Shown piece after piece: positions 8,531-30,679 of a stretch of DNA of 32,728 bases. The notes beneath the pieces were generated by a model. It ran no database searches and was not told the origin of the DNA. It worked only from the letters and a program-made list of their open reading frames with translations. Each line of letters opens with the position of its first letter. Within the stretch, counting starts at the first letter, position 1. Source of the stretch: Parcubacteria group bacterium GW2011_GWA2_45_30 (lineage in GTDB: Bacteria > Patescibacteriota > Minisyncoccia > Sungbacterales > HO2-52-23); the NCBI GenBank assembly GCA_001001625.1, contig LCKU01000002.1, positions 1-32,728 on the forward strand, given 5' to 3'. The position numbers and the translations under genes were made by a program.

Positions 8531-8804
8531 GACAACCCCCAAAAAAAATTACTAACGCAATAAAAAATCGTGTCTGCACTTTTTTCTCCCATAATAAATG
8601 TCCTACAAAAATCATAGCAAAACTAAATTGCCTGTCAACAAAAAATGCGCGTTAAGCGCTGCATTGTAAAAACCAGTTTAAGCGAGCTGAGATTTTTAAA
8701 TCGATGCGAGGTAATATACTCTTTCGCGAAATTGTGCAGGCGCACATGCAAATTCACGAAGCGAGGAGGAAGGGAAACCGGGGCTCCGCTCCCAAACTAC
8801 AAGA

Positions 8805-8827
8805 TCCTTCGCTTGGCTCAGGATGAC
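8805..8827 (+). repeat. Copy of the TCCTTCG(AC)TT(C)GCTCAGGAT repeat motif
   Basis: TCCTTCGCTTGGCTCAGGATGAC resembles TCCTTCGACTTCGCTCAGGAT at 19760-19780 and 24096-24116. Confidence 0.6.
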
Positions 8828-19717: not shown

Positions 19718-19863
19718 GAGGCCGTTGAATAATTACCGGAGGATTATTTTTCGAGCAAGTCCTTCGACTTCGCTCAGGATAAACTGAGCGCGTCGAGAAA
19801 TACAATAAGATGTTAGCTTCTCGACTCCACTTCGTTTCGCTCGAAGAATAATTCAACGGTCTC
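19718..19863. other. Multi-stem structured intergenic element (candidate ncRNA or MITE-like repeat) containing a TCCTTCGACTTCGCTCAGGAT copy
   Basis: The closing stem GAGGCCGTTGAATAATT/AATAATTCAACGGTCTC has one mismatch and one wobble pair. Inner pairs are TTCGAGC/GCTCGAA, the hairpin CGCTCAG-GATAAA-CTGAGCG, and the hairpin GTCGAGAA...TTCTCGAC (8 bp). Confidence 0.6.
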
Positions 19864-22789: not shown

Positions 22790-23644
22790 TTATCTGAACA
22801 GACGGGCCAAATAATATAATCCATATAACACGGGGCGATAAATTATATCAACTGACGCCGGATATTCTACTTGTTCTCCTCCAAATCCAAGTTTAAATCG
22901 CGTAAGGCCGGGCCAGCGCGCCTCATCAATTCCCCAAAAATCATAAGATTTGAATCCGCGTACTTTGGCTTCTTGAATCGCTCGCCAATACAACAAATGC
23001 GGAGCCATAACTTCGCGATGTTCGCTTGACGATGCGCCGTGAAGATAGGTTGCGGTTTGCGAGGGTTTATAAAAATTTACCAATACGACCGCAATTATTT
23101 TGTTCTGATATTTTGCGAAAAAAATCTCATTGGAAAAATCATTATCGCGCGCGGCAAGAAGTTTTTCATAATGTTCCCGCGAATGAACCGAAAATTTATC
23201 GCGCTTAGCGGTTTCTGCCAACAAACCCCAAAACGCCTCAAAGTCCCCTCCTTTCTCCACCAAGGATCCTTTGCGCTCGGCCAGCCGGATGTTATAACGT
23301 GTTTTTTCATGCATCCCGGAAAGTAATTCCGCCTCGGATTTTGTTAAATCAAGAATAACGGTTTTTTGTGGCTGAATTGGATTTGACGCCTGACGCCTAA
23401 CATCTGACATTTGAACGCGTCTAGCCGGATCGATTTTTAAAAAGACGGATTTCTCCCCTTGGGCTATTTTCTTAACACCCGATAATAAGTTGTCAGTTAA
23501 TAATTCCGGGTGCGGAGTATATAAATAATTAAACCCCGCCGGGAGTTTATGCTGAATAACAAGTTGTCCCTCTGCTCTCCAAGTTTTTCGACCAAGACCC
23601 TGCTGAAATTTTTCCCAAGCGGAAGATTGTAAAAAAGAATTCAT
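22790..23644 (-). CDS. FemAB-family peptidoglycan interpeptide-bridge aminoacyltransferase (FemX/MurM-like)
   Basis: The N-terminus FLQSSAWEKFQ and the overall pattern are typical of the FemAB family. Its ATG overlaps the ruvA stop (ATGA). Confidence 0.7.
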   Translation of the reverse strand: MNSFLQSSAWEKFQQGLGRKTWRAEGQLVIQHKLPAGFNYLYTPHPELLTDNLLSGVKKIAQGEKSVFLKIDPARRVQMSDVRRQASNPIQPQKTVILDLTKSEAELLSGMHEKTRYNIRLAERKGSLVEKGGDFEAFWGLLAETAKRDKFSVHSREHYEKLLAARDNDFSNEIFFAKYQNKIIAVVLVNFYKPSQTATYLHGASSSEHREVMAPHLLYWRAIQEAKVRGFKSYDFWGIDEARWPGLTRFKLGFGGEQVEYPASVDIIYRPVLYGLYYLARLFR

Positions 23645-24207
23645 CGTTTTCTACCCAATTTCTTTAACGCCTCTTTTACCCGTTTCTCGGCACTGGCAAT
23701 TTCGCGGGGTACGGTCTGCAATGCCTCCCGGGCCTCACGCTGGGAATAGCCAAGTGAGACCAGTGCCTCCAACGCATCCGCTTCCTCTTTTAATTCGGGC
23801 GCGTCAACCTCAATTCCTTTGCCTGCCATTTTGTCGCGGAGCTCCAAAACAATTTTTTCCGCGGTTTTTTTACCTATACCCGAGACCCGCGTCAAATAAG
23901 AAGTGTCGCCCGCGGCAATGGCTTTTTTGATGGTATCCACCGGCGCGATATTCATAACCCCCAAGGCGCTTTTGGGGCCTATGCCGGAGATGCTATTTAG
24001 CGTTTGAAAAAGGTCAAGCTCGGCGAAATTTAAGAATCCGTACAATTCCAACGCATCTTCACGAACCTGAAGATGAGTCCACATTTTAATTGTGCTCCTT
24101 CGACTTCGCTCAGGATTGACTTCGTCAACTTTTTCTGGTATTTTATTTAAGGTCCCTTCGGAACAAAACACTTTATACCCAACCCCGCCGTCGGTTTTTA
24201 TAACCAC
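23641..24207 (-). CDS. ruvA: Holliday junction DNA helicase subunit RuvA (the real N-terminus probably extends to about 24255)
   Basis: GGVGYKV, THLQVREDALELYGF and the HhH motifs GIGPKSA and GIGKKTAEKI are present. The frame upstream of GTG 24207 stays open and encodes IISFLEGTIEFKGAKF, which matches the canonical RuvA N-terminus but has no ATG, GTG or TTG. Confidence 0.85.
   Translation of the reverse strand: MVIKTDGGVGYKVFCSEGTLNKIPEKVDEVNPERSRRSTIKMWTHLQVREDALELYGFLNFAELDLFQTLNSISGIGPKSALGVMNIAPVDTIKKAIAAGDTSYLTRVSGIGKKTAEKIVLELRDKMAGKGIEVDAPELKEEADALEALVSLGYSQREAREALQTVPREIASAEKRVKEALKKLGRKR
24096..24120 (+). repeat. In-frame copy of the TCCTTCGACTTCGCTCAGGAT repeat inside ruvA
   Basis: 21 of 21 nt identical to 19760-19780. 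On the coding strand it translates as NPERSRRS. Confidence 0.75.
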
Positions 24208-24314
24208 GAATTTAGCGCCTTTGAATTCAATTGTGCCTTCTAAAAATGAGATTATACATTCATAATAGCCCGATTAGAAGAAATAAAAAAGCCGGAGTAA
24301 TTCCAGCTTCCTGA

Positions 24315-30479: not shown

Positions 30480-30679
30480 ATTATTGATCCGGACTGCTTT
30501 ATGAAAAAAATTTTCTTTTCCCAAAATTAAATATGGTTCCCCGCCAGCAACGCTTGAAGCGTAGCTTCTGCGGACCGGGAGCCGACCCGCCTGCCAGTCG
30601 CTATCGCTCCAGGCGATTGCGGACAGGTGTTTTTCTCCAGGTTCTTCTTGTGGTGAGCGAAGTCGCACCATGGCGGTTT

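Follow-up and report, generated by a model that had tools for sequence, protein, structure and literature searches.

How does a short repeat that also lies between genes come to be translated inside ruvA? The question is raised by a stretch of 32,728 nucleotides from Parcubacteria group bacterium GW2011_GWA2_45_30 (assembly GCA_001001625.1, contig LCKU01000002.1, positions 1 to 32,728 of the forward strand), referred to here as the window. Two identical copies of the 21-mer TCCTTCGACTTCGCTCAGGAT are found in it, one in an intergenic hairpin element and one within the coding sequence of RuvA (Table 1). We consider it very likely that the latter is a single hairpin unit of the repetitive extragenic palindrome (REP) type, which was inserted into ruvA and is carried as a tolerated passenger by a functional RuvA.

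The source genome, labelled G000 (also W), spans 760 kb in 56 contigs, with 45% G+C and an estimated completeness of 72%; the window is its contig C2, and G001 designates a relative of the same genus. The RuvA proteins closest to that of the window, among those with a name, are from Candidatus Sungbacteria, a group of the Patescibacteria. Genome-wide, the 21-mer was found six times exactly, nine times when one mismatch was tolerated and 19 times with up to four mismatches, and none of 100 dinucleotide-preserving shuffles contained a match with three mismatches or fewer. These counts bear out the original prediction, made from the letters alone, that the motif is a dispersed repeat with two identical copies in the window. 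The 12-mer core CGACTTCGCTCA was likewise exact where it had been located on the opposite strand (minus strand, 30654-30665), within a small TGGTG...CACCA stem, and the intergenic hairpin CGCTCAG-GATAAA-CTGAGCG, lengthened by TCGAC/GTCGA, has a predicted folding energy of -11.6 kcal/mol (z = -2.1). Two other points came out differently: at 8805-8825, where a diverged copy had been placed, a related unit is present on the minus strand with a length of 20 nt instead of 21, and a constant partner half-site is contradicted by the family A copies described below and by the ruvA copy, all of which lack a partner.

The reading proposed for the ruvA copy held, as the coding strand translates to VNPERSRRST between GGVGYKV and THLQVRED. 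At this site G000 has GAA AAA GTT GAC GAA GTC AAT CCT GAG CGA AGT CGA AGG AGC ACA ATT AAA ATG TGG, where the ten codons from GTC to ACA are the insert, and G001, whose RuvA is 91% identical, has GAA AAA AAT GAA AAA ATC AAA CTC TGG, which is 30 nt shorter. The RuvA of P0005 is likewise without the ten residues, and the RuvA structures of the PDB show a ten-residue gap exactly at VNPERSRRST, so that the loop extension of about ten residues that had been suspected is real and precise. Across the order, the insert is missing from 50 of the 56 other RuvAs. A first alignment with 29 other RuvAs contained 25 with a short loop, three with inserts of their own and one that ends before the loop; where the DNA motif is missing at the site, the loop is short.

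In an AlphaFold model (27 sequences), the mean predicted local distance difference test score (pLDDT) was 79.8, and values below 50 were restricted to residues 47-52, in the insert, and to the linker between domains II and III. The insert was placed between helix 33-38 and strand 55-64, at the end of the beta-hairpin opposite the acidic pin (RED at 65-67), and in this model it is a disordered surface loop. Being divisible by three in length and free of stop codons, the insert is simply translated, as ten residues. The ratio of nonsynonymous to synonymous substitution rates (dN/dS) between the ruvA genes of G000 and G001 is 0.067 at a dS of 0.89, which indicates that ruvA is under purifying selection. 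Since the 21-mer is still identical to five other copies despite this dS, the insert must be much younger than the split between G000 and G001. A JGI contig independent of the window assembly (L279) is 100% identical over 2778 nt, insert included, and the protein cluster of the window RuvA is recorded on 10 contigs; hence, neither the gene nor its insert is an assembly artefact.

The ruvA copy belongs to a family of which about 35 units of 17-29 nt, found across the whole genome, fit one plan. Read on the CTGAG strand, a unit has the head (C)GTCA, an outer stem TYCT...AGRA, a GA on either side of an inner stem of 2-6 bp, and the tail TC; the stem is made of 5 bp, then a 2x2 tandem G.A internal loop, then the 2-6 bp, and is closed by a loop of 3-5 nt, often GAA. 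The majority form inverted pairs 30-40 nt apart, and such pairs are found on contigs C5, C9, C10, C18, C24, C31, C46 and C50. The base pairs of the units covary: as the second outer pair, 25 units have C-G, seven have T-A and one has T.G, with no mismatch, and the inner two pairs occur in five fully paired combinations (GC/GC, AC/GT, AT/AT, GT/AC and CA/TG). As DNA, the longer units fold with -8.6 kcal/mol (z = -3.0), and the centre of the canonical unit, GCGAAGC, is the well-known mini-hairpin that Hirao and colleagues reportedly found to be very stable as DNA.

Within this family, the exact 21-mers form a subfamily that has TCGAAGG for GCGAAGG, one extra T and usually no GTCA head. Most of them, in the composites termed families A and B, are headed by aaata or gttta and the ruvA copy by GTCAA, while the GTCA-headed subfamily starts with cGTCA, tGTCA or aGTCA followed by T..A. 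The exact 21-mers are thus modules, found within the longer composites A and B, in nested loops (those of GTCA-headed units at C4:33496 and C44:2663) and in ruvA. Family A, present in five or six copies, is a composite of 125 nt in which three hairpins, two of them with GCAAGC loops, surround the 21-mer. Its copies always begin directly behind a stop codon, and it might represent either a small RNA or a mosaic resembling a terminator. No family A copy without the 21-mer, that is, no empty site inside the composite, came up in the search. Family B is a composite of about 100 nt with three copies in the genome. In Rfam, the window matched only two tRNAs at the gathering threshold and the family A copies matched nothing at E <= 1, so the composites are not treated as known RNAs. 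A literature search for the 15-mers of the unit found no paper containing them.

A RuvA match was obtained in 57 of the 62 genomes of the order, and five of these genomes (G000, G034, G026, G060 and G057) carry an insert in the loop (Table 1). Protein and metagenome collections added four more inserts of the PERSRR type in the orientation of G000, among them those of P0004/L275, P0012/L276 and a species designated YZ (L280), and the RuvA loops of P0052 and G203 contain a repeat of the SPSFAKASEG type, of which G203 has five copies. All RuvA inserts lie within 5 nt of the same Lys codon, following the pattern xTC AA/...AA/R (slashes mark the junctions), which is based on about ten cases. For every gene with an insert there is a near relative whose site is empty, as G001 and P0005 are for G000 and G059 is for G060 (support 100/99 in both cases). 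In a tree built with the loop masked, the eight insert-bearing genes require seven changes, of which the well-supported branches alone force at least four, and the approximately unbiased (AU) test rejected monophyly of the four family-f3 genes (p = 1e-9) and likewise of the four genes of the PERSRR type (p = 6e-6). Small repeat inserts are present in at least eight RuvA lineages at this codon, in both orientations.

The likeness between distant inserts is close. The ruvA genes of G000 and the distant P0004/L275 are 64% identical as DNA overall and 93% identical in a 45-nt segment over the insert, and this island takes in 9 nt of flank beyond the unit. Indeed, 36 of the 38 nt of GTTGACGAAGTCAATCCTGAGCGAAGTCGAAGGAGCAC are common to G000 and P0004, which suggests that the element possibly measures 39 nt and replaced 9 nt of the old loop. 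W and species YZ, from the same sample, share 35 identical nt around the insert in genes that are about 66% identical. Two ENA contigs (L277 and L278, from ERZ27254763) display reciprocal swaps of G000 and YZ sequence at this common stretch; since the JGI contigs L279 and L280 both show the sequence unswapped, chimeric assembly is the most likely origin of the swaps. A 27-mer of flank plus unit had no match in the species-representative genomes and two matches in JGI metagenomes.

Table 1 Positions of the repeat units, the ruvA gene and the RuvA inserts (plain positions refer to the window, C-prefixed ones to contigs of G000).
Feature	Position	Strand	Length	Details
ruvA	23641..24255	-	204 codons + stop	RuvA_N, HHH_5 and RuvA_C domains intact
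In-frame insert in ruvA	24091..24120	-	30 nt	GTCAATCCTGAGCGAAGTCGAAGGAGCACA, read as VNPERSRRST; solo REP-like unit, GTCA(A) head
Candidate full element	24091..24129	-	39 nt	GTTGACGAAGTCAA + unit; second mini-hairpin TTGAC-GAA-GTCAA; alignment with L275, L277, L278, L280
21-mer TCCTTCGACTTCGCTCAGGAT in ruvA	24096..24116	+	21 nt	exact match, shuffle-tested
Family B composite with second exact 21-mer (19760-19780) and partner arm	19744..19801	+		three genome copies; fold -11.6 kcal/mol (z = -2.1)
Canonical GTCA-headed unit, intergenic	8803..8827	-		agtcaTCCTGAGCCAAGCGAAGGAtct (GTCA TCCTGAGCCAAGCGAAGGA TC); copy at 8805 of 20 nt
Core GAGCGAAGTCG inside a different 5-bp stem, TGGTG/CACCA	30651..30670	-		repeat-rich spacer
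Family A copies (G000)	C3:11860-11975, C3:15198, C25:8649, C31:5704, C33:361, C22:9440			
RuvA insert, G000			30 nt	VNPERSRRST
RuvA insert, G034			24 nt	18-mer CCTTCGACTTCGCTCAGG, orientation opposite to G000, read as NPSTSLR
RuvA insert, G026			48 nt	
RuvA insert, G060			24 nt	
RuvA insert, G057			24 nt	different sequence

In-frame units were also found in other genes of G000. The mfd gene (C24:8698-8760, L171) has a head-out inverted pair, CGTCA-TCCTAAACTCCATGAAGGA-TCTC gaaaa GA-TTCTTCGCCTGCGGCTCAGAA-TGACA, which is translated as SDRHPKLHEGSRKDSSPAAQND, and leuS (C44:2600-2700, L170) has an in-frame REP pair with the unit TCCTTCGATCACGCTCAGGATAAACTCC nested in the loop of one arm, as at C4:33496. 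Units are likewise present in the genes for a large surface protein, on C46, and for a small membrane protein, on C42. The Mfd loop is occupied by three unrelated repeats at slightly different positions in three genomes: the REP pair of G000, a perfect 36-nt palindrome, GAAACTAAGTTTCCAAGCGCTTGGAAACTTAGTTTC, in G001 (L177) and a palindrome with a CAC-word repeat in G036 (L178).

The motif extends well beyond this genome. With up to one mismatch, the 18-mer of the family was found in 22 of the 41 relatives, most often in G019 with 17 copies, and the reversed control gave none; together with its abundance in G000, this speaks against the coincidental resemblance that had been named as the alternative. 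In a species-representative collection, the exact 18-mer occurs at 120 loci or more (reversed control, 13), and its hosts among the matches listed are Acidobacteriota, Bacteroidota, Alpha- and Gammaproteobacteria, Chloroflexota, Verrucomicrobiota, Planctomycetota, Cyanobacteria, Spirochaetota and Patescibacteria.

The units are enriched beside small GIY-YIG genes. G000 has two of these (C6:18004-18249, L166, and C43:3635-3904, L167; Pfam GIY-YIG), and two units lie upstream of the one on C6. Around 80 homologues of the C6 gene, we counted 1.27 units per kb within 300 nt against 0.04 per kb beyond that distance, an enrichment of about 30-fold; units were present at 37 of the 80 loci, often 7-40 nt before the start codon. 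In L111 and L057 the 18-mer brackets GIY-YIG genes directly, about 20 nt upstream in L057, and in L111, from a Sphingobacteriales metagenome-assembled genome (MAG), a tandem array of the 24-nt unit GAATGTCACCCTGAGCGRAGTCGAAGG precedes the gene and inverted units follow it (L111:1300-1560). Three tandem 24-nt units were also seen inside a long open frame of an alphaproteobacterial MAG (L047:358-423). Both small GIY-YIG genes of G000 directly adjoin tRNA genes, and the one on C6 is followed by a nested palindrome whose family, AACACCGGGTGTT, is represented 13 times in the genome.

This neighbourhood recalls the Ssn system, in which ssnA encodes a 94-residue GIY-YIG enzyme that cuts single-stranded DNA beside flanking hairpin repeats of the CGTC type, the NTS and the Ssn-related motifs (SRM) (Chenal et al. 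2025, PMC11893778). The role ascribed to Ssn in Neisseria is the control of transformation, not gene insertion (PMC11893778). As in that system, our units cluster beside and bracket small single-domain GIY-YIG genes, and their succession of CGTCAT, arm, short loop, arm and ATC parallels that of NTS, CGTCATTCCCGCG..CGGGAATC. The Ssn clade is cd10448; the closest solved relatives of the local GIY-YIG protein are UPF0213 proteins, which counts against simple membership. The family would work like SRM, and we regard it as a candidate member of that group.

The units also resemble the CGTC-tagged REPs, with which they share a length of 20-40 nt, a short tail, a predominance of head-to-head dimers and the presence of in-frame units in genes, notably those for DNA repair and tRNA synthetases. 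The unpaired CGTC/TGTC head of these REPs, and the A-T pairs with which their stem begins (positions one and two), may have a counterpart in the GTCA-headed subfamily. Four families of CGTC-tagged REPs have been described, with a plain stem of 8-9 bp and a loop of 4-5 nt and with Neisseria dRS3 and Rickettsia RPE-4 and RPE-6 as members (PMC3733652). The same work (Di Nocera, De Gregorio, Rocco 2013, PMC3733652) lists in-frame CGTC and GTAG REPs, which are overrepresented in genes for DNA repair and for tRNA synthetases, and one case of two species struck at about the same site of recB. In contrast to the stem of 8-9 bp, ours consists of 5 bp, a tandem G.A loop and 2-6 bp, with a loop that is often GAA. 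The sequence falls outside the four described families, whose survey did not cover Patescibacteria, and the TCGAAGG-type subfamily, which includes most exact 21-mers, usually has no CGTC head.

Nesting is a trait shared with the small dispersed repeats SDR1-8 of Nostoc, said by Elhai et al. in 2008 (Genome Res 18:1484; cited in PMC4390886) to be 21-27 nt long, to nest in other repeats and in genes and to encode no protein. Here, it is seen in the hairpin loops at C4:33496 and C44:2663 and in composites A and B; the sequences and the phylum are different, and no GIY-YIG link has been described for the SDRs. Ogata et al., in 2000 and 2002, reportedly presented the Rickettsia palindromic elements (RPE), the classic example of in-frame repeats, as selfish palindromes lying in frame in surface regions of essential proteins of a reduced genome, which stay functional. 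Like these, our unit is inserted in frame in a surface-exposed region of an otherwise conserved protein, but it measures 21-39 nt, has a Patescibacteria host and possesses a core common, letter for letter, to many phyla. RPE-1 to RPE-8 are distinguished, and RPE-1, of 100-150 nt, is specific to Rickettsia (summarised in PMC10969869 and PMC3733652).

As with REPIN/RAYT (Bertels and Rainey 2011, PMC3116915; Nunvar 2010), there are hairpin repeats in inverted pairs and RAYT-like genes in the genome, but these genes are not flanked by our unit. The two RAYT-like Y1 genes (L031:1217-2200 on C47 and L032:1280-2020 on C14) have palindromes of their own, TTTGGACATCCGATGTCCAAAG and GTTAAACACTCGGTGTTTAAC; each also contains an in-frame copy of its own palindrome at an equivalent position, just before the HUH motif. 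A miniature inverted-repeat transposable element, with its terminal inverted repeats, target-site duplication and 100-400 nt, was considered and rejected, as there is no parent insertion sequence and the junction repeat is AA only. REP and SRM units inside genes are already known, and this family is a further member; the recurrence at ruvA is the new part. We found no earlier description of inserts that strike a single ruvA codon repeatedly, in either orientation and across lineages forming no clade, with a near-identical 38-nt insert in distant species.

In the mechanism that we propose, the solo unit would have entered the run of codons that, in domain I of RuvA, specifies the turn preceding the acidic-pin beta-hairpin, as 30 nt or perhaps as 39 nt replacing nine, and RuvA would have stayed functional with the insert as a passenger and not an adaptation. 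The units may move as hairpins of single-stranded DNA, with assistance in trans from a GIY-YIG single-strand nuclease resembling Ssn, for which the genome has two candidates, or through template switching during replication or repair, and the RuvA turn could be both a permissive and a preferred site. One may ask how much targeting the recurrence implies. If units inserted near-randomly and survived only in the few loops that tolerate them, the RuvA turn and that of Mfd among these, the recurrence would say nothing on targeting, and we hold this for quite possible, though short of probable. Such a filter agrees with the three unrelated repeats in the Mfd loops of G000, G001 and G036, with the unrelated SPSFAKASEG-type repeats accepted by the RuvA loop (G203 and P0052) and with the modelled disorder of the insert. 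It does not readily account for the confinement of all RuvA inserts to within 5 nt of one Lys codon, for the shared site and orientation of four PERSRR-type inserts in non-clade lineages, or for the inclusion of the 9-nt flank in the 93% identity island. At the other extreme, the turn codon (xTC AA/R) would be an integration hot spot where GIY-YIG-linked (Ssn-like) modules of 22-39 nt insert site-specifically in either orientation, with the frame kept, and from which they may exit precisely. This would explain why nearly the same 38 nt lie at the same site in unrelated lineages, and we nevertheless rate it as rather unlikely.

Similarly doubtful is a single origin followed by recombination or gene conversion of a short ruvA segment between co-resident species. 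The shared sample of W and YZ and their 35 identical nt in genes of about 66% identity would suit such a transfer, as would the reciprocal swaps of L277 and L278 at exactly this point; however, these swaps are best read as chimeras given the unswapped L279 and L280, the homology in the flanks, about 15 nt to the left and about 8 nt to the right, is scant for an exchange of the RecA type, and the opposite orientation in G034 and the different inserts of G026, G060 and G057 would be left unexplained. Selection of the peptide itself, for instance for contact with a partner, seems very improbable to us. Purifying selection acts on ruvA and it is in the insert region that W and P0004 agree best, but this conservation is at the DNA level and matches intergenic copies, the peptides differ by lineage (NPERSRRS, NPSTSLR from the same DNA on the other strand, NLSAPPRL, NRSNPPT and SPSFAKASEG), and the closest relatives have no insert at all, while its pLDDT is below 50. 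Chance resemblance or misassembly has next to no credibility: short repeats can mislead assemblers, and two ENA contigs are chimeric here, yet the shuffles gave zero matches, the reading frame is intact, the JGI contig is identical, the protein is found on 10 contigs and similar inserts exist in independent MAGs.

Several points nevertheless weigh against a tolerated, REP-type insertion in ruvA and against the route of spread suggested for it. RAYT was rejected as the mobiliser of the unit, the palindromes flanking the RAYT-like genes being different from it. At the junctions, a 5-nt target duplication (xTCAA/xTxAA) was considered, and the AA dinucleotide alone is consistently repeated. The solo ruvA unit (-1 kcal/mol, z = +0.6) folds no better than shuffles, either as DNA or as RNA, so that we make no claim of RNA structure for this copy. 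The inserts of G057 and G060 have no other copies in their own genomes; age or decay may account for this, and part of the seven changes on the tree may be precise losses elsewhere. The published SRM pattern, HGTCWYN(0-2)YYVSBRHN(0-5)WNVSBRGN(0-2)RNCYNB, matches none of these units, as none of its five matches in the genome (against 0-4 in simulated genomes) is one of them. Finally, the first codon of ruvA (24253-24255, minus strand) is ATA, the same in L279 and ATG in G001, and no in-frame ATG, GTG or TTG lies upstream of it; with such a start, full expression of ruvA is not certain.

From repeats that reside in essential genes one can learn how much added sequence a protein loop tolerates, and in the strongly reduced genomes of candidate phyla they are a source of small protein insertions. 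The family joins the CGTC-tagged REPs, the Ssn-related motifs with their single-strand nucleases and the tiny dispersed repeats, in a phylum for which none of these had been described. The repeated strikes at one ruvA codon and the near-identical insert in a distant species offer a testable handle on the movement of gene-less elements of 20-40 nt; if the codon were indeed an integration hot spot, CGTC-REP/SRM elements would gain their first target rule, together with the first evidence that they spread in a homing-like manner. In practice, the units probably produce chimeric joins in metagenome assemblies, as in L277 and L278, and gene callers make spurious peptides from them.

A few further features were noted along the way. 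A mini-open reading frame of three codons, ATG AAT GTA TAA, overlaps the start site of ruvA. The nine copies of the 18-mer in G000, on seven contigs, are all on the forward strand, which may be explained by the orientation of the contigs or by a link with gene direction. The genome is also rich in other short repeats, namely tandem CGAAATC heptamers (up to 26 12-mer matches), GAACAGCGCGAACAGCACGAAC tandems and the palindromes GAAGTCGGACTTC (15 copies) and GGGATCGGATCCC (12 copies).

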